A program made the translations under genes and the position numbers. This document shows positions 1,453 to 36,863 of a DNA stretch of 64,000 nucleotides, in pieces. Below the pieces are notes generated by a model. It was not told the origin of the DNA. It saw only the letters and a program-made list of their open reading frames with translations, and searched no databases. The stretch spans positions 96,001 through 160,000 of the forward strand of contig CAVRUH010000005.1 of the NCBI GenBank assembly GCA_963724325.1. Direction: 5' to 3'. Each line of letters starts with the position of its first letter. The first letter of the stretch is position 1. This stretch comes from Waddliaceae bacterium. Its GTDB lineage: Bacteria > Chlamydiota > Chlamydiia > Chlamydiales > Waddliaceae.

Positions 1453-3015
1453 ATGAATGTTAATAATTGGCAACGTGCAGCCCCTCAAATTGGTGTCACT
1501 CAGCCCGCTGTAACAGGCGAAGTTACTGAGATTAAAAAGACTCAGGTGTTGTTAGCCGCCCGCAGAGGAGCCAATAATGATAAGCCTGGTCCGCCAGCCA
1601 AAGAAGTAAAAAAAGAAATAGACGGCAATAACAATGCGAAGCGTCCTCAAGCAAAGGCAACTGGTGAGCCGGAAAAGGCAGTGTCATCTAGACCTCCTCA
1701 AGCAGTACATGGGAAGGCGTTGCCAGTGCCAGTCAGACCGCAACAAGCGATGCTTGGGAAGGCCTTGCCAGGGATGCCAACAAAAGCCGATAAACCTGCA
1801 CCTGGAAAGCGTTCGGAGCCGGAAGTTATTAAGGGAATGATCACCCAATTTGAGAGATTAAAAGGAAAATCTCTGAGTCAGGATGAAAAAGCACGCATTA
1901 CAGCTATGGTACAGGGAATGGTAAAAGTTTCCAAAAAATTAGATCCTTCCAACAAAAAATTCATTGAAACGAAGATGAATATCGGGGGTACCGAGTATAA
2001 AACTATGATAAATAGCAAATTGAAAGTTAAGGTGTATCTACCAGATGAAAAAGTTGGGATACTTGGAAAAGGAGGCTTTGGAATTGTTAAGGAAGTGGGA
2101 ATGATAATTAAAGGTACTGCAGCCCCAGTAGGAATCGCAGAAAAGACTGCTGTGGGGGCAGCAGTGGGCGATCTAAATACAGAGAATCGTTTGTTAACAA
2201 AGATTAATGATCTTGCTAAGAAAGAGGGAATATCCTTGGCGATACAAAAAAAACCTCACATATTCACTAATTTTAAAAATGGCGAGAGCAGCTATGAAAC
2301 CACAAAGCACCATGGGGATCTGTCTCCTAAAAGACTGGTTTCAATGTCTCAGGATGAAAAAGGAAGTTATGGGCTTGATAATACTAAAGGCCTTGCTAAA
2401 ATCGGTGAAGATCTAATGACAGCCATAGCATTCGCGCACAAGAATGGTGTGGCTCATAGGGACATTAAAATGGATAACCTTGCTTTTGGACAAATTAAAT
2501 CAGGAAAAGGAAGGATAGAGGTTCATGACCTCGGATTAGCAGCAGACAGGATCAATCTAAAGGAGGCAGGCATTGGTGGAACTCCAACCCATATGACACA
2601 CTTAGATGATGCACGTCAAAGGGCGGAAAGAAATCCTGCAAATCGCTTAGAATTACAAAAAAAACAAGATTCGTTTGGAATGTGCCATACTCTTCTTACA
2701 CTTTTAGACACCGCCATAACCAAGAAAGTACCATATACAATGAATGATGGTAATATAACTCCAGAGAAAGGTTGGGTAGGAGATTTCCTTAAACTCACTC
2801 GAGCTTGGGGTGATGCTGATTCAGGAAAAAACCCTGCTGAACAACCTAGCATGAAGGACTTATTAAAAAATATTGAAAAAACGATGGGAAAAGGATTCAC
2901 TGATGTTTTAAAAGGAATGATGCATCCAGATCCAAATAAGAGGATGCCAGTCGATGAAGCCCTGGCTGCATGGCAAAAAGCTAGCGACGCGATAAAAACC
3001 GGTGTAAAATTATAA
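1453..3015 (+). CDS. Hanks-type Ser/Thr protein kinase with low-complexity N-terminus (candidate effector)
   Basis: GKGGFG, IAEK, HRDIKMDN, DLG, GTP motifs. Confidence 0.85.
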   Translation: MNVNNWQRAAPQIGVTQPAVTGEVTEIKKTQVLLAARRGANNDKPGPPAKEVKKEIDGNNNAKRPQAKATGEPEKAVSSRPPQAVHGKALPVPVRPQQAMLGKALPGMPTKADKPAPGKRSEPEVIKGMITQFERLKGKSLSQDEKARITAMVQGMVKVSKKLDPSNKKFIETKMNIGGTEYKTMINSKLKVKVYLPDEKVGILGKGGFGIVKEVGMIIKGTAAPVGIAEKTAVGAAVGDLNTENRLLTKINDLAKKEGISLAIQKKPHIFTNFKNGESSYETTKHHGDLSPKRLVSMSQDEKGSYGLDNTKGLAKIGEDLMTAIAFAHKNGVAHRDIKMDNLAFGQIKSGKGRIEVHDLGLAADRINLKEAGIGGTPTHMTHLDDARQRAERNPANRLELQKKQDSFGMCHTLLTLLDTAITKKVPYTMNDGNITPEKGWVGDFLKLTRAWGDADSGKNPAEQPSMKDLLKNIEKTMGKGFTDVLKGMMHPDPNKRMPVDEALAAWQKASDAIKTGVKL

Positions 3016-3100
3016 TATTTCCCTATTGAAATAATTCTTATTAGTCCTTTTTTGTCAAGACTCAATTAATATAATAAAATTTTCAATTAAATAAATAAAC

Positions 3101-3129
3101 TTGTTGTAAAAATTATTTTATTTTATAAT
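3101..3129 (+). promoter_or_regulatory. sigma66/sigma70-type promoter of the second kinase
   Basis: TTGTTG-N17-TATAAT, similar to 657-685. Confidence 0.6.
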
Positions 3130-3187
3130 TAGTATATAGGCTGAGGTGTTTTATATAATTAAATTGGTTATTTAAAGGAGCAATCCA

Positions 3188-4801
3188 ATGAACGTGGATC
3201 GTCCAATCCATCAAGCAGTCCCTCAAACTGGAGCAGCACCTGTTAAACCAGGTGAGATTAATGAGGCTGAAAAGGCTTGGCTGAAGAATTTCGCTAAAAA
3301 AGAAGGTGGTAATAATAGGCCGGGTCCCCCAGCTCGTGAAGTAAAAAAAGAAGTAATTTCACAAAACAATGCAGGAGCGAATAAAGTAGGAGCAACTCCC
3401 GCTAAAACAGGAAAGGTTGAAGAATTTCGCCAGGCTTTGCTGAAGAAACCACTTTTTAAAGCTGGCTTTGATAAAACCCCTGGTCCTTCATCCAGTGCAG
3501 TAAAAAAAGAAGGAGTAGATCAAAATAATGCGAAGGTGTCACCTAGATCATCACAAGCTGTAAGTGGGAAACCCTTGCCAGTGCCTCGTAAGCTTTCGGA
3601 GAAGGAAGTTATTACGGGATTGAACAATCAGTTCGAAAAATTAAAGGGAAAATCACTGAGTCGGGATGAAAAGACACGCATTGAAGTTATGGTAAAGACA
3701 ATGGTGAAAATTGCTAAACCTTCTGACAAAGCTTTCCGGGCCATAAAGATGAATATTGGGGGTACCGAGTATAAAACTATGATAAATAGCAAATTGAAAG
3801 TTAGGGTGTATTTACCTGATGCAAAAGTTAAAACACTTGGACAGGGCGCCATGGGAATTGTTAAGGAAGTGGGAGTGTTGCTTAAGGGTACCGCTTCAAT
3901 AGCAATTGCAAAAAAAACTACTCTTGATTCACAGGCAAAAAGTAGTCTTAGAACTGAGAATCGCATATTAACAGAACTTCATGATCTTGCAAAGAAAGAG
4001 GGAGTTTCATTGGCGGTGCAAAAGAAACCTCACGTTTATACCGACATTAAAAATGCTGAGAGCAGCTACGAAACCACCAAGCACCGTGGGGATCTGGATC
4101 CTAAAAACATGCTTTCATTGTCTGATGATGAAAAAAGAAAATATGGGCTTGATAATACTAAAAGCCTTGCTAATATCGGTGTAAATCTGTTGAAAACTAT
4201 AGCTTTCGGACATAAACATGGTATAACTCACAGGGACCTCAAAGTGGAAAACCTTGCTTTTGGACAGGATAAGCTCGGAAATGGAATGATAGGGGTCTAT
4301 GACTGGGGATTAGCTTCAGACAGGAAAAATCAAAGTGGGGCAGGCATTGCCGGAACACCAAACCATTTTACAGATTTAGATAGGGAACTTCAACTTGACC
4401 AAATCAAAGCTGAGTTGCCAGATGAAATACTTCTCGAGAAGTTGCGACAAAAACAAGATTCATTTGGAATGTGTCATACCCTTCTTATACTTTTAGACAC
4501 AGCTATAACCAAGGAAGCACCTTATTTACTCAATGAAGAAGGCAACGTAACTCATGAAAAAACTTGGGAAACAGTTTTCCAAGATTATACTTTAGGCGGC
4601 GATCGAACAGGTAACCCAGCCGATGCGCCCGATGTAGAGGAATTATTAGCAGATATTGAGAAAGCAATGGGAAAAGGATTCACTGAGGTTTTAACAAAAA
4701 TGATGGATCCTGATCCTATAGCTAGGATGCCAGTCGATCAAGCCCTCGCACTATGGCAACAAGCTACTGACGCAATAAAAACCGGTGTAAATTTATTATA
4801 A
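3188..4801 (+). CDS. Hanks-type Ser/Thr protein kinase, tandem paralog of 1453-3015
   Basis: GQGAMG, IAKK, HRDLKVEN, DWG, GTP; shares KMNIGGTEYKTMINSKLKV and QKQDSFGMCHTLL-type blocks with the upstream kinase. Confidence 0.85.
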   Translation: MNVDRPIHQAVPQTGAAPVKPGEINEAEKAWLKNFAKKEGGNNRPGPPAREVKKEVISQNNAGANKVGATPAKTGKVEEFRQALLKKPLFKAGFDKTPGPSSSAVKKEGVDQNNAKVSPRSSQAVSGKPLPVPRKLSEKEVITGLNNQFEKLKGKSLSRDEKTRIEVMVKTMVKIAKPSDKAFRAIKMNIGGTEYKTMINSKLKVRVYLPDAKVKTLGQGAMGIVKEVGVLLKGTASIAIAKKTTLDSQAKSSLRTENRILTELHDLAKKEGVSLAVQKKPHVYTDIKNAESSYETTKHRGDLDPKNMLSLSDDEKRKYGLDNTKSLANIGVNLLKTIAFGHKHGITHRDLKVENLAFGQDKLGNGMIGVYDWGLASDRKNQSGAGIAGTPNHFTDLDRELQLDQIKAELPDEILLEKLRQKQDSFGMCHTLLILLDTAITKEAPYLLNEEGNVTHEKTWETVFQDYTLGGDRTGNPADAPDVEELLADIEKAMGKGFTEVLTKMMDPDPIARMPVDQALALWQQATDAIKTGVNLL

Positions 4802-16605: not shown

Positions 16606-17766
16606 ATGCATTTTACGAAGAGATTATTCAGGGAGCCCAAACAAAGTTTTTTTCTTTTTGGACCGCGGGGAACGGGAAAATCTACCCTAATTCGAAAAAT
16701 ATACCCGGATGCTCTAATTATTGATTTACTGAATCCTGCAGTCCAACGAATGTATGCGGCACATCCGGAAAGACTACTCGATGTAGTAAGAGCTGAACCT
16801 ATTGGAAAAGTCATTTTAATTGATGAAATACAGAAAGTCCCAGATTTACTTTCAATAGTTCATATATTAATCGAAGAGAAAAAGCAGTGGCTATTTGTAT
16901 TGACCGGCTCAAGTGCTCGTAAACTAAAAAGGCAAGGTGTAGACCTATTAGGAGGCAGGGCTCTAAAAAAATCACTTCATCCCTTTATGGCAGTTGAACT
17001 TAAAGACGACTTTAACTTCGAAGATGCCCTCTTATATGGTCTTTTGCCCTTAAGATTTGCCTCTAAAGATCCCTTGAGCACTCTTTCTTCGTATATTAGT
17101 CTCTATCTTGATGAAGAAGTAAAGGCAGAAGGCGTGGTGCGCAATATTGAGCCCTTTTTCAGATTTATGGAAGTGCTCAGTTTTTCACATGGCGCCGAAT
17201 TAAGTATTAGCAACATCGCTCGCGAGTCTATGGTCAAAAGAACGACTGTGCAGAATTGGATGACGATTGCCGAGGATTTACTAATTTGTTTTCATATAAA
17301 TGTATTTAAAAAACGGGAAAATCGAGTTTTAACTTCCCATCCTAAATTCTATTTTTTTGATGCTGGGGTTTATAGAGCTCTTAGGCCAAGATCTGTTTTA
17401 GATATAACATCCGAAATTGACGGATCGGCGATTGAAGGTCTTGTCGCACAGCATCTTCGAGCTTGGATAGAATATACAGAAGAAAAACACTCATTGTATT
17501 TTTGGAGGACTAAATCTGGATTGGAAGTGGACTTTGTCCTTTATGGTCCACAAGTTTTTGCGGCTATAGAAGTAAAAAACAGTCAATATATTCATCCAAA
17601 GGACTTGCAGGGATTAGAGGCTTTTTTAGAGGATTACCCAGAGGCGCAAGCACTCTTGTTATACAGGGGAAAGGAAAAAATGTTGTTAAAGGAAAAAATT
17701 TTATGTCTTCCCTGTAATGATTTTTTGAGGCAGTTACATCCAAATACCTTGCTGATTAGAACGTAA
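16606..17766 (+). CDS. AAA_14 ATPase with DUF4143-type / PD-(D/E)XK-like C-terminus
   Basis: GPRGTGKS, LIDEIQ, LTGSS, KFYFFDAG, YFWRTKSGLEVDFV, IEVK. Confidence 0.9.
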   Translation: MHFTKRLFREPKQSFFLFGPRGTGKSTLIRKIYPDALIIDLLNPAVQRMYAAHPERLLDVVRAEPIGKVILIDEIQKVPDLLSIVHILIEEKKQWLFVLTGSSARKLKRQGVDLLGGRALKKSLHPFMAVELKDDFNFEDALLYGLLPLRFASKDPLSTLSSYISLYLDEEVKAEGVVRNIEPFFRFMEVLSFSHGAELSISNIARESMVKRTTVQNWMTIAEDLLICFHINVFKKRENRVLTSHPKFYFFDAGVYRALRPRSVLDITSEIDGSAIEGLVAQHLRAWIEYTEEKHSLYFWRTKSGLEVDFVLYGPQVFAAIEVKNSQYIHPKDLQGLEAFLEDYPEAQALLLYRGKEKMLLKEKILCLPCNDFLRQLHPNTLLIRT

Positions 17767-19393
17767 GTTGATCGAGTAATCTATTTAGGTGATTTTTGGT
17801 ACCCTGGGGGATGACGAGATTGACTTTTTCCTTATCCACTTCTTTACGCATGATCTTGCCTACCTGCTCGTCATGAATGATGGCCATCTGCTGATTGATC
17901 TGTAATAATTTCCAAGCAGCCGCCTCATAGATAGAGAAATTTCGACCAGTTTCAAAGGCATCCTCAGATAAACTCAAAAACAATGAACCTAATTCCCTGG
18001 CACTCTTTTTTACATGATGGAACTCATCTAATGATAATTCGTCTCTTGCTATAAGTAATTTGATCGCCTGTATTTCATTTTTTAGAAATTGTTGCAGATT
18101 TTTAGAGTTAGCTGCTATAAATGCAGTGCCTTTAAGGATATCATCATTTTTTATTAAAAAAACATGTATCCATTGAGCTTCTTTTATTATTTTTTCTTTG
18201 ATATTATGCTTTATTGCATCTTTTAATTTTCCAAATTTCTTCACAAACTTGTGGTATTCTGCCGGTGCTTGATGCCCCTTGGCAAACATATGATAAGCGC
18301 TTCTCATGTAGGTAGCTTCTTCACGAATTCGATTTAATTCCATTATCCTATCACGCGTTAAATGCTCAAAATGCCCTTCTGCAACTTCAGTTAAAAGTTT
18401 ATAATCCATTTGGTCTAATGTCATAATCCATCTTCTATGTGCGACTTGAATTAACCGTACGATATCCTCATTTGTTAAAGTAATCTGAATGCGCGCAGTG
18501 TAATAATGGCTCAAAATCACACTGCTTAAATCAACTGTCGGCACCATAATAACGGTATTTGATTGAACCCCATATACCTGCAAATGTTTCTTTAATACAA
18601 CCAGTGATTCATAGGAGGGAATGAAATGTCCCGATTTGTTTGAAATAAACATGAGTTGTTTATCTTCAACGCGATATAGAATCATTGAACCAGCCGTAAG
18701 AATGGCTTGATTGGCACCCCCTGCCAAAATAGTGTGATTTGGATATGCAAAGTCACTATCTAATTTGTCTTGATTGAAAAGATAGTCCTTTCGACCTGGT
18801 TTTTCCAGGGCCGCCCGAATTGATCCATCAGGAAAAAGGACAAAATTATAGGTTTTTCCAGATTCCATTGTTTTTAGAGTTACCTCATTGAGGTCAAAAG
18901 GCTTAAAAACACCATCTTTTTGGTATTGATGCCACTCTTCTTGGTATAGCCGTTCCCTTTCTGCATCACTTAATTTTCGTCCTGTCTTGAATGTATTGAG
19001 GAAGCCTATTTTGTTCCCAACATTCACAGTCTGAGGAAATAACGTTTTTGGACAGTCAGGATTGTAAAAATCCATAACGGTCGCAGCGTAGGTAAGGTTT
19101 TTGTGGAATTGATCGAGTTGTTTTTCAATAACAGTCATTCCACGAAGAAATTCCTCTTGACTTTCAGCATCGTGAAGATAAGAGAGCCAAGCATCCTGTA
19201 GATAACTACATCGGAGTAATTTATCGGATAATGTTTTGCCTTGTTCTATTTCGCGGTCGAGCTTTTGAAATGTGCATATAGTTTTTTCGGTCGTTGGAGT
19301 GAGTGGTTTTTCTATATCGTAGGCGGACAATCCCCCTAAAAAAATCCCAAAAAATATGGATAGAAAAATCAGTCGTTTAAGCGATAAAAGCAT
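17756..19393 (-). CDS. Exported hypothetical protein with an SNxSGH-motif domain and a CHAD-like C-terminus
   Basis: Signal-peptide-like N-terminus; NHTILAGG...AGS...ISNKSGHFIP; helical His/Arg/Lys pattern in C-terminal half. Confidence 0.7.
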   Translation of the reverse strand: MLLSLKRLIFLSIFFGIFLGGLSAYDIEKPLTPTTEKTICTFQKLDREIEQGKTLSDKLLRCSYLQDAWLSYLHDAESQEEFLRGMTVIEKQLDQFHKNLTYAATVMDFYNPDCPKTLFPQTVNVGNKIGFLNTFKTGRKLSDAERERLYQEEWHQYQKDGVFKPFDLNEVTLKTMESGKTYNFVLFPDGSIRAALEKPGRKDYLFNQDKLDSDFAYPNHTILAGGANQAILTAGSMILYRVEDKQLMFISNKSGHFIPSYESLVVLKKHLQVYGVQSNTVIMVPTVDLSSVILSHYYTARIQITLTNEDIVRLIQVAHRRWIMTLDQMDYKLLTEVAEGHFEHLTRDRIMELNRIREEATYMRSAYHMFAKGHQAPAEYHKFVKKFGKLKDAIKHNIKEKIIKEAQWIHVFLIKNDDILKGTAFIAANSKNLQQFLKNEIQAIKLLIARDELSLDEFHHVKKSARELGSLFLSLSEDAFETGRNFSIYEAAAWKLLQINQQMAIIHDEQVGKIMRKEVDKEKVNLVIPQGTKNHLNRLLDQLTF

Positions 19394-19578: not shown

Positions 19579-21306
19579 ATGGTAAACATTTATAAATGGA
19601 TTCAATTATTTTTCCTTTCAATCTGCTGCGTGGCATTTGGTGGAGAAGTTGGTAATACTAATGAGGAATCTCTTTTAAAAGAGGCGAAAGCCCTTAATTC
19701 AGAGCAGCGATATAGTGAAGCAATTACCATTTATGAAAAACTTCTAGAACATTCACCAAAAAATACCGACTATTATTTCTTATTAGGAAAAACCTATTTA
19801 CAAATGGAATCCTTTGAAACAGCGATTGATACTTATGCTGAAGGATTAAAGATCCAACCGAATAATGCAGAATTAAAAGTTGCAATGGGCTACGCTTATT
19901 TACAAAGAGGAATCCATTTTCCCCGACTCTGGCCCCAGTATCAATGGTTTTGGTATCCGCCTTATGTATTCTATTTAACCCGAGAAGAGGTCTATCCGCG
20001 ACCAAATTGGAATGATATTTCAATAAGTCAAAGTATATTCGAAGGGGTTTTGGCACAAAATCCACAAGATTCCGATGCACTAACCGGCATCGGTCGTATT
20101 GAAGCCCTTAAGGACAATAAAGTACAGGCAGAATGCTATTATGCTGAAGCTCTTCATATTCGACCCAATAATGATACTACTTTTGCTTATTACGCAGCAT
20201 TGTTGTCAACGAATGGAGAATACTATTCCTCCAGAAATATGTATGAAAAATACTTAGAATTAGATCCCGCTGATGCCGGCACCCGAAAGGACTATATTGA
20301 TGTTGTAAAAAGAAGTAATCCAGAGGTCAATTTTGCAGGATTTTATGCTCAAGAAAACGAACAAGATCCAATTTCTACAACCCAAAGAGCTTGGACTGCA
20401 AGATTATACAATTATGGAGGGTTAGTTGCAGCTTCCTATGCACCCTTCGACCGATTAAAAGTTGCAGGGTCCTTTATCGATGAATATATCAGACTTAAAA
20501 ATTTAATCGGTAAAACGTATATATATTCTTTAAGTGTTCAAAGGGGTAATCTTGGATTCGTATGGAATGCCACTCCATATGCATCTGTTTCAGGAGCCCT
20601 TGGCGCCACATATTATGCAAAATATAAAAGTTCAACAACTTCTATACGCTCAGGATATTATATTCAACCCGCATTGAATATTACTTATACCAGAAATCAT
20701 CAAAGCACATTTATAGAAACAAATTCAGATACCATCCTTGTTGCAAGAGATCCTATAAGCAATCGTTCAACATTAATAGATCGTCAATTCCTGCGGGGAT
20801 TTTATGAATACAATTTTGGAAATCGAACTCAAGTAGGTGTCACAGCTGCAAATATTTGGTACATTAATCGAATAAAATGGAATCAACAGCAAATTGGGAC
20901 GACTTGGATTCAATGGGGTCCCCCACGCCTTTGGCAGTATATCACTTTCCGTTACCAATTTATCTATGGACGTTTCAATAAACTTACCCCGGATTATTAT
21001 GTGTACCGTTTTCAAACAACTCATTGGCTGAATGTCACCCTTTCCAAAAACTGGTTTAATGATAAATTGATCACAGAAGCAGGATATGGGCATGCCTGGC
21101 AGCGTGGATTCGAAACAGGACAAATTCTAACGACCACTCCCACTCCAACATTTCATATATTGTATCGCGAAATCAACGCCGCATTCGCTCGATTGGAATT
21201 CGATCCAAATGATTCAATATCTATGAGTTTGACAGGAACGTACACTCTGGATACATTTAATTATACAACGGCTTCAGTGACTGGAAAATTCCAGTGGAAC
21301 TTCTAA
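19579..21306 (+). CDS. TPR protein with probable C-terminal outer-membrane beta-barrel (polysaccharide export-like)
   Basis: Signal peptide, TPR repeats, aromatic-rich beta-strand region ending QWNF. Confidence 0.75.
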   Translation: MVNIYKWIQLFFLSICCVAFGGEVGNTNEESLLKEAKALNSEQRYSEAITIYEKLLEHSPKNTDYYFLLGKTYLQMESFETAIDTYAEGLKIQPNNAELKVAMGYAYLQRGIHFPRLWPQYQWFWYPPYVFYLTREEVYPRPNWNDISISQSIFEGVLAQNPQDSDALTGIGRIEALKDNKVQAECYYAEALHIRPNNDTTFAYYAALLSTNGEYYSSRNMYEKYLELDPADAGTRKDYIDVVKRSNPEVNFAGFYAQENEQDPISTTQRAWTARLYNYGGLVAASYAPFDRLKVAGSFIDEYIRLKNLIGKTYIYSLSVQRGNLGFVWNATPYASVSGALGATYYAKYKSSTTSIRSGYYIQPALNITYTRNHQSTFIETNSDTILVARDPISNRSTLIDRQFLRGFYEYNFGNRTQVGVTAANIWYINRIKWNQQQIGTTWIQWGPPRLWQYITFRYQFIYGRFNKLTPDYYVYRFQTTHWLNVTLSKNWFNDKLITEAGYGHAWQRGFETGQILTTTPTPTFHILYREINAAFARLEFDPNDSISMSLTGTYTLDTFNYTTASVTGKFQWNF

Positions 21307-21323
21307 AATAAGGGGATCTATTA

Positions 21324-21731
21324 ATGGAGAATGATGAAAAAAAACGATTTAAAATTGTCATTGTTGATGACGATGATGACCTTTTGAAATTGATGATATA
21401 TTTATTTGAAGCACAAGAATTTGATGTAATATCGCTCTCTTCAGGAAAAGAGGCCTTAGCTTATTTTTCAGATGAGGCAAAGATAAAATCAATAGATTTA
21501 CTCATTCTGGATCGTATGCTTCCAGATTTAGATGGACTTGAAATTCTAAAAAAATTAGAGAAAATGTATCCAAAAAAAACGCCTATTGTTCTTTTCTTGT
21601 CAGTGCTTGGTGCGGAAAAAGATGTTTTAAAAGGTCTTGAGGCTGGTGCTGTTGATTATTTGACAAAGCCATTTAACCTGGATGTTCTGCTGGATAAAGC
21701 ACGATCCTTGCTCACAAGGTACAGGAAGTAA
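21324..21731 (+). CDS. Single-domain response regulator (receiver)
   Basis: VDDD, LDRMLPDLDG, FLS, DYLTKPF. Confidence 0.93.
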   Translation: MENDEKKRFKIVIVDDDDDLLKLMIYLFEAQEFDVISLSSGKEALAYFSDEAKIKSIDLLILDRMLPDLDGLEILKKLEKMYPKKTPIVLFLSVLGAEKDVLKGLEAGAVDYLTKPFNLDVLLDKARSLLTRYRK

Positions 21732-21740
21732 ATTAAACCG

Positions 21741-22787
21741 ATGGAACTGTTATATATAATAGTCATCTACGCCCTTCTTACTGAAATACTCATTGTTCTA
21801 TTTCTTGTACTGCTCATCCCATTTCATCGACTAATTCTTCATTACAAAAAGACCTCTAGAGAGGCTGCACGAAAAAAAATATCTGAAATGATCATCGATT
21901 GTCTACAGCACAAGAAAATATCTGCAATAGATGAATCCCTAAAGAAATATACAAGTACCACAACCCTTCTCGCAACGGTAGAGGCTTTCGACAGAAGAAT
22001 ATCTGAGGCTGAATGGACTGAATTAAAAAACAAAATTGTAACAGTATATCTCTTGCCAACTGCTCGAAAAAAAGCGACTAGCTCTTCTTGGTTCAAAAGA
22101 AATTTTGCAGCTCGCTGTTTTGCTCTTACACCCTTGAAAGAAGATGAAAGCCTCATTTTTAAGCTCATCAGTGATCCTGTATTCCTTGTTCGAAGCGTTG
22201 CTGCAATCGCTATCCTTAACCTAGAAAACAAAGAAGGAATTTTTAAGATCATCAAGCAGATGAGTTGCGAAAAAGGATACGCTCGCTACTATTATCGAGA
22301 TCTGCTTTTGCAAGGTCCTACTAATATTACCAATTTTGTGAAAGAAATCGCTGAGTCTGAAACAGATCCTGCCATTCACCTTGCATGTCTCGAACTGCTG
22401 ACCGATAAATCGATTGTCATTATTCCCCATTATATCAAAGATGATCTTGAATCGACAAATGATAGCATTCGCTTGCAAGCTGCAAAAATTGTCGCACGTA
22501 ATCCGCAGAAAGATACTGTCAGTATTTTAACTAAATGCCTAGGTGATTCCAACTCAGAGATTAGAGCCGAAGCAACAAGGGGTTTTCACTATTTCCCAAC
22601 AAATGAGGTGTTTGAAACTCTTCAACAAATTTTAAGCGATCCTGTATGGGTGGTCCGGCTGCAAGCAGCAAAAACATTAAAAAAAATGGGTCAAAAAGGA
22701 CTCAACATCCTGAAAAATCAGGATTCTCTTGTCAATAAAATAGCTTACGATGTTGCCCAAACTGTACTCCAATATGATGGGTGGTAA
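21741..22787 (+). CDS. Membrane-anchored HEAT-repeat protein
   Basis: N-terminal TM helix; repeated D..VR..AA motifs. Confidence 0.85.
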   Translation: MELLYIIVIYALLTEILIVLFLVLLIPFHRLILHYKKTSREAARKKISEMIIDCLQHKKISAIDESLKKYTSTTTLLATVEAFDRRISEAEWTELKNKIVTVYLLPTARKKATSSSWFKRNFAARCFALTPLKEDESLIFKLISDPVFLVRSVAAIAILNLENKEGIFKIIKQMSCEKGYARYYYRDLLLQGPTNITNFVKEIAESETDPAIHLACLELLTDKSIVIIPHYIKDDLESTNDSIRLQAAKIVARNPQKDTVSILTKCLGDSNSEIRAEATRGFHYFPTNEVFETLQQILSDPVWVVRLQAAKTLKKMGQKGLNILKNQDSLVNKIAYDVAQTVLQYDGW

Positions 22788-24227
22788 TTGATGCATGACT
22801 TATTAAAGCCCCTATACATAATTCTCGACCCATTTTTTCTAATCTATTTTTCCATTGTCAACCTAATTTACGTCATTTTTTTCATTATAGGCTCCTTTGG
22901 AACCTTTAAACGGATAAGAGAAATCTATGCTGAAGATCTCACAAGTATTTTGAAATCAAACTCTTTGCCAGAAATGACTTTTATCGTCCCTACGTATAAT
23001 GACGAAGCATTTATTATGTCCTGCATTGATAGTTTAAGAAATCTTTCCTATCGATATAAACAGATCATTATCGTCAATGACGGATCTACCGACAACACCT
23101 TCAAAGTGCTTTTTGAAAAACTTGAGCTCAAACATATTCCGGTATTCTTTAACCAAACACTCCCGACCAAGCCAATTCGTGGTGCCTATGAAAGTACCCT
23201 ATATCCGGAAATCATCGTTATTGATAAAGAAAATGGTGAGAAATTTGATGCTGTAAATGTTGCTCTAAATGCCTGCCAAACTAACTACTTCGTTCTCATT
23301 GATTCAGATACCTTTATTGAAGATAGCGAATTCGAGGCCCTCATACGTCCTATTTTTTCCTCACCTGAAATTATTGCCGTAGGGGCTGCAGTCAAGATTC
23401 AAGATGGATGCGAAATTGTCGGAAGAAATATCGAAACTACTGCCTTTCCCCAAAATTATATTTCTGCTGTCCAGGCCATCGAATATCTCCGTGCCTTTCT
23501 CATGCGTGTAGGTTGGGATTTTTGTGACAATAACTATATTATCTCTGGGGCATTCGGCGTGTTTATTAAAGATGTTGTTGTGCAAGCCGGAGGATATGGA
23601 CCTACTATTGCAAATGATCTTGAGATGATTCTTCGGTTAAATCGAATCATGATCGCGTCTGGGACAAAATATCAGATCAAATATCTTCCAGATCCAGTTG
23701 CATGGACGAAAGCTCCTGGAACATGGAAGGCATTAGCCGACCAACGATTGAGGTGGCATAGGGGATTGCTTGAATGTCTTTGGTTTCACAAATCAATGAT
23801 ATTTAATCCCAAATATGGAGCGCAAGGAATGTTGGTACATCCTTTTTTGCTAATTTATGAGGGCTTTGAACCTGTCATCGAGAGTTTAGGATATATCTAT
23901 ATTCTTGTAGGTTGGTGGTTTGGTGTTGTGAATTCATATTTTGTGATATTATTTCTTATGATTACTGTAGGATTCGTCTTTATTCAAACTTTATTTTGTT
24001 TATTAATGGAAGAGTTCAGTTTTAAGAAATACCCATCTGTTAGAACTATTTGGTTGCTGTTTCTATATAGTTTAGTGGAAAATTTTGGATATCGCCAACT
24101 TACACTCATTTGGCGTCTGCGGGGCTTTATCAGTTTTTTCAAAAGATACAGTGAAATAAAAAAAGATACCGACAAACTCAATGCTTCCATCAATGAAATA
24201 CTCAAAAAAGGCAAGCTCCATTGGTAG
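22788..24227 (+). CDS. Processive GT2 glycosyltransferase (PgaC/IcaA-like)
   Basis: VNDGSTD, IDSD, ANDLE (ED position), QRLRW, several TM helices. Confidence 0.9.
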   Translation: MMHDLLKPLYIILDPFFLIYFSIVNLIYVIFFIIGSFGTFKRIREIYAEDLTSILKSNSLPEMTFIVPTYNDEAFIMSCIDSLRNLSYRYKQIIIVNDGSTDNTFKVLFEKLELKHIPVFFNQTLPTKPIRGAYESTLYPEIIVIDKENGEKFDAVNVALNACQTNYFVLIDSDTFIEDSEFEALIRPIFSSPEIIAVGAAVKIQDGCEIVGRNIETTAFPQNYISAVQAIEYLRAFLMRVGWDFCDNNYIISGAFGVFIKDVVVQAGGYGPTIANDLEMILRLNRIMIASGTKYQIKYLPDPVAWTKAPGTWKALADQRLRWHRGLLECLWFHKSMIFNPKYGAQGMLVHPFLLIYEGFEPVIESLGYIYILVGWWFGVVNSYFVILFLMITVGFVFIQTLFCLLMEEFSFKKYPSVRTIWLLFLYSLVENFGYRQLTLIWRLRGFISFFKRYSEIKKDTDKLNASINEILKKGKLHW

Positions 24228-24666: not shown

Positions 24667-25485
24667 TCAGTACAATTTTCCTGCGAACCTGGAAAGAACA
24701 TAGGTACAAAAACTAATGGCGCTAATCAAAAATGAAACAGGCCAATTTGTAAGATAGGAAAGTGCAATTCCCAACCAAACGACGACAACTCCAATAAATA
24801 TTGATAGCGTTATTCCTCTCCAAAATGTACGCGTGATACAAAGTGCACTGGCAGCAGGTCCTATCAACAAAGTAAATACCAACAAAACTCCCACGACTTG
24901 ACTAGCCTCTGTCACAGCAATTGCAACCATCATCAGAAAAGTAATCGAAATAAAATGTAGAGATATTCCCTTCGCTTCTGCCAAATCAGGTTCTAAGCTC
25001 GCAAATAAAAGCTGTCTTCCAATCAGCACAATCCCCAATAAACTGACAATAGAATAAATAAACATCGATTTGATGAGATCATTCGAAACACCAAATATAT
25101 CACCAAATAATATAGACATTGCTTGGCCAGCATAATTCGTGTAAAAATGGAGAAATAACACTCCCAACCCCAAAGACAAGGCCAAAATCATCCCAATAGC
25201 AATATCGCTCTTGGAAGCTTTTTCCCCAAGACTTCCCATTCCAATAGCCGCCAAAAGAGTTAATATTAACTGCCCCGTTGCTGGAGAAAAGCCTGCTAAT
25301 CCTGCTCCCGCTGCCCCAGCGAAAGCAATATGACTGAGTGCATGTGAAGCAAAATTCTGACTCCTTAAAACAATGAAATATCCAATGATTGCTGAAACTA
25401 TTGCAGCCATTGTCCCTGCCATAAAGGCATTCCGCATAAAATCATAAATAAATAAATCGCTAATCATTTCAAGTACAGCCGTCAT
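24667..25485 (-). CDS. Zn/Mn ABC transporter permease (ZnuB-like)
   Basis: HALSHIAFAGA, ILFGDI, VGVLLV; multi-TM. Confidence 0.9.
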   Translation of the reverse strand: MTAVLEMISDLFIYDFMRNAFMAGTMAAIVSAIIGYFIVLRSQNFASHALSHIAFAGAAGAGLAGFSPATGQLILTLLAAIGMGSLGEKASKSDIAIGMILALSLGLGVLFLHFYTNYAGQAMSILFGDIFGVSNDLIKSMFIYSIVSLLGIVLIGRQLLFASLEPDLAEAKGISLHFISITFLMMVAIAVTEASQVVGVLLVFTLLIGPAASALCITRTFWRGITLSIFIGVVVVWLGIALSYLTNWPVSFLISAISFCTYVLSRFAGKLY

Positions 25486-26257
25486 GATCATCCTTCTCGG
25501 GGTTTTTGGGCATGATCCAAACATTATTTCCCGATCTTATCACCTCTACAGGGGTATTATAAAGTTGACTCAATGTCGTAGTGTTCACCACTTCATCAAC
25601 AGTGCCAATTGCCGCTTGCCCATGCGATAAATAGATAATATTATCCATGACATCAATCAATGGATTTATATTATGCCCTGTCATCAATACTGTGAAATTT
25701 AATGCTTTCTGAATGGAGTGTATTAATTTGATAATTCTCTCCTGTTGGCCAGGGTCAAGAGCACTTAATGGTTCATCCAATAGCAATATTTTTGGCTTTC
25801 CCAATAAGGCAAGCGCAAGGCCCAATCGTTGCCTTTCTCCTCCAGAATACTGCATGAAAGGTCTGTCGATATAATCTTGCAATTCTACCAGTTGAATAAC
25901 TTCTTCAATTTCTAGATTTTGCTTTTTATTCAAAAAAGGAAATCCCCAACGGCAACCCTGAGCAGCAGCAGAAAGAAAAGATCTTCCTGACAGAGGAAAA
26001 GATTCTAACTCATGATGAAATTGAGGCAAATATCCGATCGATAAAAGACCTCTTTTGGGTGGTGTGCCATAAATTAGGATTTTGCCATCTATTAAGTTCG
26101 TCAACCCCAAAATTGTGCGGAGCATTAATGTCTTTCCAGCTCCATTAGGTCCAAAGATTCCTACAAAACTACCATGAGGTATTGAAGCGGTTAAGTTGTT
26201 CAAAATAGATTTCGTTCCAAATCCAAATGAGGCATTTTGAAATTCAATAGCATTCAA
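25469..26257 (-). CDS. Zn/Mn ABC transporter ATP-binding protein (ZnuC-like)
   Basis: GPNGAGKT, SGGERQR, LLLDEP. Confidence 0.9.
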   Translation of the reverse strand: MNAIEFQNASFGFGTKSILNNLTASIPHGSFVGIFGPNGAGKTLMLRTILGLTNLIDGKILIYGTPPKRGLLSIGYLPQFHHELESFPLSGRSFLSAAAQGCRWGFPFLNKKQNLEIEEVIQLVELQDYIDRPFMQYSGGERQRLGLALALLGKPKILLLDEPLSALDPGQQERIIKLIHSIQKALNFTVLMTGHNINPLIDVMDNIIYLSHGQAAIGTVDEVVNTTTLSQLYNTPVEVIRSGNNVWIMPKNPEKDDHDGCT

Positions 26258-26259
26258 AA

Positions 26260-27117
26260 TTAACCGCCTAAACTTTTATCTAATTCGTTCAACTGATTCA
26301 TCATCCATTCAATATAACTTTGCCCTGCAGGTTCTGTTTCGCTAACCCCAACTACAGGAATACCAGCGCTTTCAGCTATATTTTTCATTGTGGTTGTAAT
26401 TGGATTAATGACTTGATTATTAAAGATAAGAACCTTGACTGCGTGATTTCTTAAATTGTCTTCAAATTTTTTGATGTCTTGAGCGCTGATGTCAGTATCA
26501 TTCATAACACTCAATTGAAAATTGATGCCCTTCATAATTAATCCCAGACTCTCTGCCATGTAATTAAATACAGGTTCTGTTGCAATCACTGGAGTTCCCT
26601 GATAGCGCTTTTTCATTTCAGCTATTTTATTAAGAAATGGTTTATTTTCTTCGGAAAATTTGAAAAATTGTTGTTTGAAATATGTCTTGTGTTCCGTATC
26701 AAGTTTACCCAATTCTTCGGTAAGTTTATTTGCAAAAGCGAGCATGGTGTTAGGATCATACCAGATATGCGGGTTGTCACCTTCTCTTTTATTAACCAAC
26801 TCTGCAACAACTATAATTGTTTTTGTTGAGTTATTGTCTGTTTTCGTTAAATTTTTCACCCATGGATCATAATTGATCCCATTATAAATAATAAGGTTGG
26901 CCTTGGCTATAGCCCTGGCTGTATCGGCCGACGTGCTAAATAAATGTGGATCCTGATTTGGATTATTAAGGATGCTAGTCACTTTTACATATGGCCCGCC
27001 AATCTCGCTAGCAATATCCCCATAAAAATTCTCTGCAGCAACAATTTCTATTATGTTGGCATCTAAAGATGCATAAAAAAATAACCATAAAAATAGATTA
27101 AGGATTTTCTTGCCCAT
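26260..27117 (-). CDS. Zn/Mn ABC transporter substrate-binding protein (ZnuA/TroA family)
   Basis: DPHLF, NPHIWYD, signal peptide. Confidence 0.9.
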   Translation of the reverse strand: MGKKILNLFLWLFFYASLDANIIEIVAAENFYGDIASEIGGPYVKVTSILNNPNQDPHLFSTSADTARAIAKANLIIYNGINYDPWVKNLTKTDNNSTKTIIVVAELVNKREGDNPHIWYDPNTMLAFANKLTEELGKLDTEHKTYFKQQFFKFSEENKPFLNKIAEMKKRYQGTPVIATEPVFNYMAESLGLIMKGINFQLSVMNDTDISAQDIKKFEDNLRNHAVKVLIFNNQVINPITTTMKNIAESAGIPVVGVSETEPAGQSYIEWMMNQLNELDKSLGG

Positions 27118-27225
27118 CGTAAGCCACTCAGCAAAATGTTAATCTCTTTCTAATAATATAAAATTATTTTCTTGACAATGTCCAAGTATTTACTATGATG
27201 AAAATAACAAGAAAAGGAGACAATT

Positions 27226-29283
27226 GTGGAAAAAATATTTGCTGATTCACCGCAAAATAAGCAAAAAAAAATCATTCTCCTTATTGATGACGACGTCGAT
27301 TGCTGCATCTACCTTGAAAAAGCCCTCCGCCATTCCGACTACTCCATAGTAATCGCACCAAATGGTAAAGAAGGATTAGAATTTATCGATAACGGAGTAT
27401 GCGATGCGGCGCTCGTCGATATCTTTCTCCCTGATGTCGACGGCGTGGAAGTTGCACGTCGCGTCCGGGCCAAAAAAGGCCACTTCTTCCCAATCATTGG
27501 CTTGACAAGTTTATCCATTGATACTCTTAAACAACAGTTTCCAAACGACCTCATCCATTTTTCCGATATCTGTATCAAACCCTTTGCATATCAAACGATT
27601 CTCAATGTATTACAAAAGTCTTATCCTTCATATTACAAAGAAAAAAGTTCCTTCCAACATCTGATTAGCGACTATCAAGCCTCCATTCCCGATAGACTTG
27701 AACTCCTCCGTAGCCTTATTAACGAAATTAAAAAGAAACCAAGTGAAAAAACTATCAACGAACTTCGATTACAGGTTCACAAATTAGCCGGAAGCGCCGG
27801 CCTCTACGGATACGACGAAGTAAGTACTGTCTGCAAAGAATTCGATGATGTCTTAGGGCAACATATCACCCTTTTCCAACAATCCGCCGATACTGCAAAT
27901 TGGGTCGATAAATATATAGAATTCATGAAAAAAATTACAGAGAGCTTTGCAAGTAAAAATGCAGTGAGTATTGGCGTCCTCGAACAAAAAATTATCGATA
28001 AAACAGCCATAATAGGTGTCATCGGCCTCGGCACGATCGGCCTTTCACTACTCGATGCCTTCGGAAGAGCAGGATTTTCCCTCGTAGGATACGATTCTAG
28101 CACTCAAAAAATGCAAATGCTCAAAAATAGAGAATCGTATCTTAATTTTATGGATATGAGCCACCTCTTCGGAATGATGGACGAAAATCGATTCATCCCT
28201 TCCTCAGATTCTAATGTTCTCAAAGATGCCGACGTACTTATTATAAGCGTGCCAACCTCCATTGATCGCTATGGAACGCCAAATCTCACCAACCTCAGAG
28301 CCGCATTCCAAACTGTAGCCGCATACCTCAAAAAACACCAACTCGTTATCCTCCAAAGTTCCACCTACCCCGGAACTACCCAAGAAGAACTCCTACCCAT
28401 ATTGTCGAAATCAAAACTCAGCGTCGGGATCGATTTCTACCTGGCTCACGTACCCGAAATCACAGATATCGGCAACCAAGATTTTAACTTTATTCAAATG
28501 CCTCGCATTGTCAGCGGCATCACCCCCTCATGTATGAAAAGCGTCTCCCTTCTTTATCAATATGTGAGCTCGAAAATTATACCGTGCTCCTCAACACAAG
28601 TTGCCGAAGCAGCGAAATTGCTTCAAAATGCCTTTCGATTAGTAAATATCTCGTTCATCAACGAAATGAAAATTCTATTCGATACAATGAATATCGACGT
28701 CTGGGAGGTAATCGCCGCTGCAGCTACAAAGCCTTTTGGATTTATGCCATTTTATCCAAGTCCTGGGATCGGCGGCGATTGCATTCCCATCGCTCCTTTT
28801 TATCTGGTTTGGAAAGCAAAGGCATCTGGAGGACCCACCACAATGCTCGAAGATGCCGGTCGCATTAATGATGGCATGCCCCATTACGTAATCAACAAGT
28901 TGATTTATGGTCTAAATCAACATAAAAAAACCATTCGTGATTCCAAAATCCTCATTCTTGGTGCGGGTTATAAAAAAGATGTTAATGACATCAGGGAATC
29001 CATCGCTCTAAAAATACTGCCAATTCTCAAAGAAATGCAAGCCAATGTCGACTATCATGACCCTTTTGTAAAATCAATCTCAAATTTTCCCAGCCATCCC
29101 GAAATGGCTATGGAATCTATTGAGTTCAATCTCGAAAACCTTAATCAATATGATGCCGTGGTGATTCTAACCGATCACTCTTTCTACGATTGGCCAAAGA
29201 TCGTAAAAAATAGCAACCTCGTTGTTGATACACGCAATGTTTCAGCAAATCTCATCGACACTAGAAAAATAATCAAGGCATAG
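27226..29283 (+). CDS. Fusion protein: receiver domain + Hpt domain + UDP-N-acetylhexosamine dehydrogenase (WbpA/WecC-like)
   Basis: IDDD...VDIFLPDVDG...LTS...KPF; VHKLAGSAGLYG; GVIGLG, STYPGTT, GIGGDCIP, YKKDVNDIRES. Confidence 0.85.
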   Translation: MEKIFADSPQNKQKKIILLIDDDVDCCIYLEKALRHSDYSIVIAPNGKEGLEFIDNGVCDAALVDIFLPDVDGVEVARRVRAKKGHFFPIIGLTSLSIDTLKQQFPNDLIHFSDICIKPFAYQTILNVLQKSYPSYYKEKSSFQHLISDYQASIPDRLELLRSLINEIKKKPSEKTINELRLQVHKLAGSAGLYGYDEVSTVCKEFDDVLGQHITLFQQSADTANWVDKYIEFMKKITESFASKNAVSIGVLEQKIIDKTAIIGVIGLGTIGLSLLDAFGRAGFSLVGYDSSTQKMQMLKNRESYLNFMDMSHLFGMMDENRFIPSSDSNVLKDADVLIISVPTSIDRYGTPNLTNLRAAFQTVAAYLKKHQLVILQSSTYPGTTQEELLPILSKSKLSVGIDFYLAHVPEITDIGNQDFNFIQMPRIVSGITPSCMKSVSLLYQYVSSKIIPCSSTQVAEAAKLLQNAFRLVNISFINEMKILFDTMNIDVWEVIAAAATKPFGFMPFYPSPGIGGDCIPIAPFYLVWKAKASGGPTTMLEDAGRINDGMPHYVINKLIYGLNQHKKTIRDSKILILGAGYKKDVNDIRESIALKILPILKEMQANVDYHDPFVKSISNFPSHPEMAMESIEFNLENLNQYDAVVILTDHSFYDWPKIVKNSNLVVDTRNVSANLIDTRKIIKA

Positions 29284-29291
29284 TTGCAAAA

Positions 29292-30269
29292 ATGAATAAA
29301 AAAAATATTCTAATTACCGGAGGCGCAGGTTTCATCGGCTCAAATATGGCAGTCCATCAGCTCGCAAAAGGCAACGCTGTTTGGGCCGTAGATAATCTCA
29401 TGACAGGACGCAAAAGCAATATAGAGCCTCTTTTATTAAATCCAGCTTTCCGTTTTGAAGAGGCCGACCTTGCTGCATGGAAACATCTGCCAAAAGCCGT
29501 TGAATGGGCAGATTATATCTTTCACTTCGCCGCAAGCATCGGACAACGTTTCGTCCTAAACAACCCCGTTTACACTATCACAAATAATATTCGAAGCTGT
29601 GAAGAAATTCTAAAAGCCATGGACAAAGTAAATCACAATGCACGTCTCCTAGTAATTTCCACTTCAGAACTCTACTGCCATAGTGAAGAGAATCCCGACG
29701 GCACTACCTCTGAAGATGCCATTATCTGCTTTTTATCAAATAATTTTTTGCAAGATACTTATCCTGTAAGCAAACTAGTCAACGAGGTCATGGCACTTTC
29801 CTACGGATACGAAAAAGGTCTCCACTGTACCATTGCAAGGATTTTTAATACTATCGGTGCCAATCAATGCAGCACCTACGGAATGGTTGTTCCCACATTC
29901 ATCGAGCAAGCCCTAAACAATAAACCTATTACAATCTACGGGGATGGATTGCAATCCCGTTCGTTCAGCGACGTACGGGACACCATTAGAGCCCTAGACT
30001 TACTTTTGCAAGCCCCAGACAGCAAAGGGGAGATCGTTAACGTTGGAAATGATGTGGAATGCACCATCTTAGAACTAGCAAATCTCGTTCGAAAAAAAAC
30101 AAACAGCAAATCAGAAATAGTTTACATGAACTACAAAGATGCCTATGGCGTCCCATTTGTAGATGTCAGAAGACGCCAACCAGATCTCACCAAATTAAAG
30201 CGTCTCACCAATTTCGAACCTCAATGGACCCTAGAAAATACCATTGAGTACCTTATTGAATTATTTTAG
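29292..30269 (+). CDS. NAD-dependent nucleotide-sugar epimerase/dehydratase
   Basis: TGGAGFIG, STSELY, YPVSK, RIFNTIG, YGDGLQSRSF. Confidence 0.9.
   Translation: MNKKNILITGGAGFIGSNMAVHQLAKGNAVWAVDNLMTGRKSNIEPLLLNPAFRFEEADLAAWKHLPKAVEWADYIFHFAASIGQRFVLNNPVYTITNNIRSCEEILKAMDKVNHNARLLVISTSELYCHSEENPDGTTSEDAIICFLSNNFLQDTYPVSKLVNEVMALSYGYEKGLHCTIARIFNTIGANQCSTYGMVVPTFIEQALNNKPITIYGDGLQSRSFSDVRDTIRALDLLLQAPDSKGEIVNVGNDVECTILELANLVRKKTNSKSEIVYMNYKDAYGVPFVDVRRRQPDLTKLKRLTNFEPQWTLENTIEYLIELF

Positions 30270-34641: not shown

Positions 34642-36863
<2,222 letters not shown>

Follow-up and report, generated by a model that had tools for sequence, protein, structure and literature searches.

A stretch of 64,000 nucleotides from a Waddliaceae bacterium (contig CAVRUH010000005.1, positions 96,001 to 160,000; hereafter the window) carries on its forward strand, at 27226-29283, a gene for a 685-aa fusion of a receiver domain (REC), a histidine phosphotransfer domain (Hpt), and a nucleotide-sugar dehydrogenase (DH). 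An earlier note, made from the sequence alone, had described one uninterrupted open reading frame, and a single frame with a GTG start and no internal stop was indeed found. The receiver (aa 17-128; 27274-27609) contains the acidic residues D21-D23 with the pocket D21/D22, the phospho-acceptor D65 (codon at 27418), T94, and K118-P119. The Hpt helical bundle (aa 146-241; 27661-27948) carries His185 (codon at 27778) in the motif HKLAGSAG, and the DH (aa 252-685; 27979-29283) has C519 in GGDCIP and a PEITDIG motif. All domains scored above the Pfam cut-offs, namely Response_reg at residues 17-128 (E 1e-13), Hpt at residues 146-213 (E 1e-8), and the N-terminal, central, and C-terminal UDPG_MGDP_dh domains at residues 263-672. 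The NCBIfam model TIGR03026 gave 341.6 bits against a cut-off of 189.8. The receiver and Hpt motifs as well as the deviating GGDCIP and PEITDIG motifs, all listed in the earlier note, were thus recovered. With its acidic pocket, Asp acceptor, Thr/Ser, and Lys, the receiver is predicted to be phosphorylatable, and the fusion protein looks soluble.

Upstream of the gene, a sigma-70-like promoter match for a fusion-SDR-GT transcript (TTGACA-16-TATGAT, 11/12 positions; 27172-27199, forward strand; SDR, short-chain dehydrogenase/reductase; GT, glycosyltransferase) was the strongest of the 25 promoter-like sites between 24200 and 31500 and lies back to back with a promoter match for znuA. Because shuffled sequences yielded 19.5 such sites, it is to be read as a mere consensus match. 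Together with AGGAG at 27215-27219, 5' of the GTG codon at 27226, it supports this start.

Residues 1-330, used as a query, retrieved 43 proteins, of which 16 share the full REC-Hpt-DH architecture. These 16 clusters (90% identity) of 628-688 aa comprise the window's own and 15 others, which are 57-72% identical to the window protein over its whole length. Close homologues are labelled Chlamydiales, Parachlamydiaceae, or Chlamydiota in the sequence sources. The fusion is not absent in relatives, an absence that the earlier note had listed among its refuting conditions. D65 is conserved in 15 of the 16 clusters, T/S94, K118, and H185 in all of them. Mean pairwise identity is only 48% for REC and 54% for Hpt (73% for DH), and the retention of the phospho-residues nevertheless suggests that the relay parts are under selection. 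The linker from F241 to L252 measures 11-13 residues in 16/16 clusters. Among 400 scored genomes of the phylum, the fusion is intact in two (G000, the window's genome, and G188) and frameshifted in one more (G234); a search of 73 genomes of the G188 family added G427. The distribution is patchy, with the fusion in three of six genomes of one genus, and neither the second genome of the window's genus (97% complete) nor five further genomes of the window's family yielded it. It is kept across two families, down to 65% DH identity. A metagenome scan with the single fusion protein as query gave no match, and the ESM Atlas contained only receiver/Hpt clusters, below 0.9. No paper on the REC-Hpt-DH architecture, the gene cluster described below, or chlamydial pel genes was found in a full-text literature search whose coverage largely leaves out subscription journals.

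The chance that the fusion is an artefact of assembly or gene calling is practically negligible. Such a reading could appeal to G234, where the gene is split over several frames, and to P0045/P0047, 446-aa calls inside a fused cluster. The G234 copy, however, lies in N-rich sequence and is ~98% identical to the intact P0014, for which reason it was also rejected as a natural split. Furthermore, a 151-base Logan contig that may stem from the window's own source matches 27925-28075 exactly and spans the Hpt-DH junction, and 16 clusters of several sources hold the intact fusion. These independent intact copies refute the artefact. The junction near 27940-27990, singled out for a check in the earlier note, lies within the stretch spanned by the Logan contig.

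The DH part was modelled on its own with high confidence (pLDDT 95, pTM 0.91; TM 0.87 to 4r16). Its three Pfam domains, the TIGR03026 match, and the fold place it in the nucleotide-sugar (UDP-glucose/GDP-mannose) dehydrogenase family. According to the available part of PMC3129169, the conserved active site of human UDP-glucose dehydrogenase (UGDH) comprises six residues: T131, E161, K220, N224, C276, and D280. The window DH has equivalents of the first five, with E411, K464, N468, and C519 for E161, K220, N224, and C276 and with Ser379 in place of the catalytic Thr; in human UGDH, T131S costs less than one order of magnitude (PMC3265891, available part). The residue aligned with Asp280, four positions after the Cys, is Ala523.

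For a wider comparison, 225 DH rows were aligned, of which 115 were canonical and 110 divergent; one short row was dropped, and ~9 rows occur almost identically both as a protein id and as a locus. The canonical set includes at least 79 non-chlamydial and at least one chlamydial DH locus from a contig scan with generic patterns. The divergent set (~46-100% identity) consists of 18 REC-Hpt-DH, three Hpt-DH, and 89 unfused rows. E377, R412, E467, H518, and D523 are invariant in 115/115 canonical rows, whereas the window DH has Q377, I412, Q467, D518, and A523. Q377 is found in 109/110 divergent rows, R412 in 2/110, Q467 in 106/110, D/E518 in 107/110, and D523 in 28/110, with free variation at this last position. 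E411, K464, N468, R471, C519, and K583 are kept in all 110, including the window DH. In the divergent clade, 54 of the 85 columns that hardly vary among the canonical rows are still conserved at ≥90%; some of the others fixed a new residue and the rest relaxed. With Cys, Lys, Asn, and Glu never varying and the position next to the Cys settled on a new acid, the pattern points to changed chemistry rather than decay. Our guess is that Asp518 takes over the role of the lost Asp523 and that the enzyme is still active. Outside the clade, among proteins picked by a profile favouring such motifs, 96 of the 99 with His-Cys have Asp(+4), against one of the four with Asp-Cys, and these four sit on separate tree branches. 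Phosphotransfer from His185 to Asp518 was considered and dropped as unsupported.

The earlier note had seen a full WbpA/WecC-type dehydrogenase with its catalytic Cys. The complete fold and C519 stand; the type does not, as five family-invariant residues are changed, and the loss at Ala523 had been missed. Equivalog scores were far below cut-off (TviB, 194.7 vs 592 bits; WecC-type, 182.5 vs 459 bits), and the subfamily motifs EST, PER, KxxEN, and GGHC..D read QSS, PEI, KLLQN, and GGDC..A. By score and motif, the window DH thus does not belong to the WbpA/TviB/WecC-type UDP-N-acetylhexosamine (UDP-HexNAc) dehydrogenases. An ordinary UDP-glucose dehydrogenase is encoded elsewhere in the genome (C7:335585-336952). 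Among other dehydrogenases encountered, many canonical ones are interrupted right after the catalytic Cys (P0162, P0176, and similar matches of 590-940 aa); P0162 and P0176, the two scanned, match an intein domain.

All 18 REC-Hpt-DH rows fall together in the DH tree, in a clade nested among unfused proteins and sister to the type of G264. The three Hpt-DH proteins without REC (P0122-P0124), whose Hpt was recognized by Pfam (1e-5) in two and by precomputed annotation in the third, group with G137. A single clade for all Hpt-DH joins was rejected for 42 DH rows (p-AU 0.0005) and for 26 Hpt rows (p-AU 0.001), in approximately unbiased (AU) tests that used quick LG+G4 trees on subsets and groups defined by Pfam architecture after the first tree was seen. 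A single origin was therefore discarded, and on these trees the joins arose at least twice. A profile search of 1.84 billion representatives revealed, among the best 150, one further regulatory fusion, P0207; the Pfam scan covered 15 of 147 new matches, chosen mainly by length. P0207 is a singleton REC-DH protein; its DH is of canonical type and lies far from the fused clade. It has 576 aa, comes from NCBI on an 8.8-kb contig, and combines intact receiver residues with Ala in place of the catalytic Asp. Two further proposals on origin were rejected. The genome's own REC-Hpt-REC paralog is only 29% identical to the fused REC-Hpt, and free REC0 and Hpt proteins of the operon are closer. A recent foreign origin of one half was dismissed; the GC content is similar in the REC, Hpt, and DH parts (0.39-0.42) and uninformative.

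The fusion gene belongs to a polysaccharide cluster. On the forward strand, this cluster includes a tetratricopeptide repeat (TPR) protein (19579-21306), likely an outer-membrane export component, in which only the TPR part matched families and is weakly PgaA-like. It is followed by a single-domain receiver, REC1 (21324-21731; D63, S93, K115), the likely acceptor for the Hpt, a membrane-anchored HEAT-repeat protein (21741-22787), and a GT2 glycosyltransferase (22788-24227) that is PgaC/IcaA-like below cut-off and likely the polymer synthase. Downstream of the fusion lie an extended, epimerase/decarboxylase-like SDR (29292-30269) with intact catalytic Thr/Ser, Tyr157, and Lys161, whose nearest solved structure is a UDP-glucuronate decarboxylase, and a glycosyltransferase-like protein (PF13524; 30320-31423). 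A znuA-znuC-znuB-like metal ABC transporter on the reverse strand (24667-27117) sits inverted within the cluster and splits it. In the relative loci examined, neither a znuA/znuB match nor a PF13524 gene beside the DH was seen.

The polysaccharide context proposed in the earlier note is borne out in relatives, in which HEAT-GT2 or Pel-like clusters surround DH, REC1, Hpt, and SDR. The SDR accompanies the DH in 17/17 tabulated loci. G264 and G305, whose DH and Hpt are the sisters of the fused ones, have the order TPR-Hpt-REC1-HEAT-GT2-DH-SDR. In G137, a free Hpt gene stops 15 bases before the DH gene. The metagenome contig L157 has the order REC0-Hpt-REC1-HEAT, and its REC0 shares 44.5% identity with the fused REC, with which it clusters (SH-aLRT 98). 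In G427 and G234, the fusion neighbours pelG/pelF-type genes, and REC1 stands at the opposite end. For loci with a fully shifted DH, REC1 is in the cluster in 13 of 14, the miss ending at a contig end, and Hpt in 12 of 14, and either synthase type is accompanied by REC1/Hpt. Loci with a basal DH (PER and EN kept) had Hpt or REC1 in 0/3 cases within the 31-37 kb examined. As the loci are related, this association is a pattern and not a statistic. Pel-like operons, with PelF above the NCBIfam cut-off and PelG by Pfam, were observed in the chlamydial genomes G427 (L147:407-13093), G234 (L112+L204), G180 (L118+L207), G253 (L123+L205), and G147 (L124+L206). A second, separately derived DH lineage with an altered YK motif occupies Hpt/REC1-HEAT-GT2 operons at L211, L212, L214, and L171, and its DH-SDR pair is duplicated in G328. 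Elsewhere in the window, we noted a tandem pair of proteins that match protein-kinase domains weakly (1453-4801), a 545-aa reading frame that has no match in Pfam or NCBIfam and is oriented away from the TPR gene (17756-19393, reverse strand), and a collagen-like repeat protein (34660-36421) whose Gly-X-Y pattern breaks off within the frame close to the 3' end, which points to a frameshift.

The window's genome gave seven HisKA and three Hpt matches. None of the seven HisKA matches lies in the window, just as the earlier note had stated for histidine kinases. Its remark that the phylum has few two-component systems fits a 2015 survey of 108 Chlamydiae with Hpt in 1.85% (PMC4558063, available part), but neither this genome nor the presence of this Hpt family in 66 of 400 phylum genomes. 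Candidate upstream kinases are encoded elsewhere in the genome, including a GAF-PAS kinase whose neighbours are a receiver and a REC-Hpt-REC protein, three more with PAS-family matches, a REC-kinase in a Che-like cluster, and a kinase of the KdpD type. Kinase genes of the genome lie at C7:267408, C1:203183, C1:280683, C7:413451, and C5:19888. The first of these regions (C7:264490-268982, L222) encodes a REC-Hpt-REC protein, a PAS-HisKA protein without Pfam ATPase match, a single receiver, and the GAF-PAS kinase, a candidate upstream relay. The Che-like cluster (C5:19888-28706, L226), outside the window, looks complete, with CheA-REC, CheB, CheR-TPR, MCP, CheW-like genes, and the REC-kinase. 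With an Hpt that has its His, a kinase, and a downstream receiver, the genome holds the components of a multistep His-Asp phosphorelay.

The C-terminal RxxD domain of PelD binds cyclic di-GMP (c-di-GMP). PelD-like proteins end after the GAF domain, without the RxxD domain, in all three Pel-like loci with Hpt/REC1 (G427, G180, G234), and keep it in both Pel-like loci without Hpt/REC1 (G253, G147). No GGDEF match was found in the four fusion genomes G000, G188, G427, and G234 (74-99% complete) or in G264 and G305, whereas G137, G180, G253, G147, and G116 have one. Of the two marks of a c-di-GMP-activated synthase-dependent system, a diguanylate cyclase (GGDEF match) was found in 0/4 fusion genomes, and the PelD-like subunits that would serve as receptor are short. 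Judged from gene content, c-di-GMP control looks to have been replaced in the fusion genomes.

We propose that the DH of the fusion is remodelled but still active and that it rides on the central part of a kinase-REC-Hpt-REC1 relay by which polymer synthesis is switched, a model to which we give about an even chance of being right. An unlinked sensor kinase would phosphorylate Asp65, from which the phosphoryl group would pass to His185 and on to the separate receiver REC1, if this is the direction of flow. As REC1 is the conserved partner of the Hpt, the main output of the relay is probably the synthase. REC1 would act on the HEAT-GT2 (or Pel-like) synthase and turn on a secreted polysaccharide. 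The remodelled DH would oxidize C6 of a UDP-sugar and hand its product to the neighbouring SDR. Phosphorylation or Hpt-REC1 docking may alter or localize DH activity, so that precursor supply would follow the same signal as the synthase, by allostery or docking. Through the fusion, the supply of precursor for a secreted polysaccharide is likely coupled to a phosphorelay, in place of c-di-GMP.

Several observations weigh against this proposal. On the relay side, no kinase is linked to the fusion at its four genome loci, REC is not adjacent to the enzyme part in the chain, and the beta-5 switch position of the receiver lacks an aromatic residue (Ile115 in the window protein and in 13/16 fused clusters). 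A full-length AlphaFold model from a shallow alignment of 16 sequences (pTM 0.34) had a poor DH core and did not place the domains relative to each other. A complex prediction for the Hpt domain and a DH dimer scored 0.00, which speaks neither for nor against the proposal. On the enzyme side, Asp at 523 is found in 0/21 fused rows, so that all of them lack the catalytic Asp; in human UGDH, Asp280Ala slows the enzyme by about five orders of magnitude (PMC3265891, available part), and the accessible text of PMC3184952 concurs on the role of D280. P0070, a clade member, has an acid at neither 518 nor 523, and P0207, with His and Ala at the equivalents of these positions, speaks against an Asp swap. 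In two loci of the second chlamydial DH lineage, the catalytic Glu is replaced by Gln or His. That the DH-SDR pair occurs with synthases as different as GT2 and PelF-type GT4 would be unexpected if it supplied a dedicated donor. As to replacement of c-di-GMP control, G137 and G180 combine Hpt/REC1 with a GGDEF match, and completeness is only 85% for G000 and 74% for G427. Finally, the loci are few and related.

The join might be no more than a passive tether between neighbours in a rearranging operon that lost a stop, with independent halves and, at most, a fixed stoichiometry or an enzyme kept near the synthase. A read-through fusion would be easy, because the free Hpt gene of G137 ends so close to the DH gene and Hpt-DH fusions share its clade. 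The 89 of 110 clade rows that are unfused have the same active-site shift, and the full-length model shows no fixed domain arrangement. In the sister operons, however, the Hpt lies three genes from the DH, so that the fusion needed a rearrangement; moreover, the join persists across two families with a near-constant linker, and an unrelated REC-DH protein exists. On balance, we regard a passive tether as unlikely, though it has real weight. The signal could also run in reverse, from a weak DH that senses UDP-sugar/NAD(H), possibly through a covalent Cys519 adduct, and gates Hpt phosphotransfer, so that the synthase is on only with precursor present. That 21/21 fused rows lack the Asp280 equivalent, the near-inactivating change in human UGDH, would suit such a sensor, as would the Ala of the unrelated P0207, which lacks the C-terminal Arg. 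The Gln/His in the second operon DH lineage aligns with human Glu161, and E161Q traps the thioester in the human enzyme (PMC3265891, available part). The pairing of DH-SDR with unlike synthases and the ordinary UDP-glucose dehydrogenase kept elsewhere point the same way. Against a sensor stand the Cys, Lys, Asn, and Glu invariant in 110/110 rows, the new acid fixed beside the Cys, and the catalytic Tyr and Lys retained by the partner SDR; we consider it unlikely too, slightly more so than the tether.

Beyond the proposed relay-borne DH, a broader scenario is possible but doubtful: environmental chlamydiae may have swapped c-di-GMP control of exopolysaccharide for a His-Asp relay, rebuilt a DH with a new Asp-Cys arrangement into a precursor-sensing or relay-switched module, and joined it to Hpt at least twice, as a module portable between GT2- and Pel-type synthases. 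If the relay-borne DH is real, it would be a direct physical link from a His-Asp relay to a precursor-making metabolic enzyme, and the gating of a surface polymer would have been solved otherwise than by tyrosine kinases or c-di-GMP. No Pel-like or relay-controlled polysaccharide system from these host-associated bacteria turned up in our literature search. The 110-row clade, in which His beside the catalytic Cys became Asp and the "essential" Asp is dispensable, offers a natural experiment on how this enzyme family activates its nucleophile, and the unfused counterparts can serve as in vitro controls for the fusion.

Among known enzymes, the DH resembles the UDP-HexNAc 6-dehydrogenases (Staphylococcus aureus Cap5O, 3ojl; Pyrococcus horikoshii, 4r16; WbpA/TviB/WecC type) and human UGDH in its three-domain fold, the NAD-binding glycine motif with Asp, the catalytic Cys, Lys, Asn, and Glu, and the pairing of its gene with an SDR. 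Unlike these enzymes, it carries an N-terminal REC-Hpt and five changes at family-invariant residues, including the catalytic Asp, and it scores below all equivalog cut-offs. The nearest functional precedent for phosphorylation linked to the precursor dehydrogenase of a surface polysaccharide is the tyrosine-kinase control of CapO/Ugd, in which CapB2 activates CapO via Tyr89 (PMC3795738, available part). The fusion differs in that His-Asp relay domains lie on its own chain and no BY-kinase is involved, and a phospho-effect is only proposed for it.

As for signalling proteins, CheB and PleD/WspR are response regulators with enzymatic output, and RcsC-RcsD-RcsB, ArcB, and BarA are multistep His-Asp relays. 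As in these, an intact receiver and an Hpt share a chain with an enzyme, and NCBIfam matches to proteins of the multistep-relay kind were weak. In the fusion, however, the Hpt stands between receiver and enzyme, a kinase core is lacking, the enzyme is metabolic, and the conserved downstream partner is a stand-alone receiver. Pel, Pga, and Bcs are c-di-GMP-activated synthase-dependent exopolysaccharide systems. The chlamydial clusters share with them GT2 or PelF/PelG synthase genes, a TPR export protein, and precursor-modifying enzymes. Unlike these systems, they have an uncharacterized HEAT partner, a PelD-like subunit without the RxxD domain, no GGDEF match in the four fusion genomes, and the REC/Hpt set instead.

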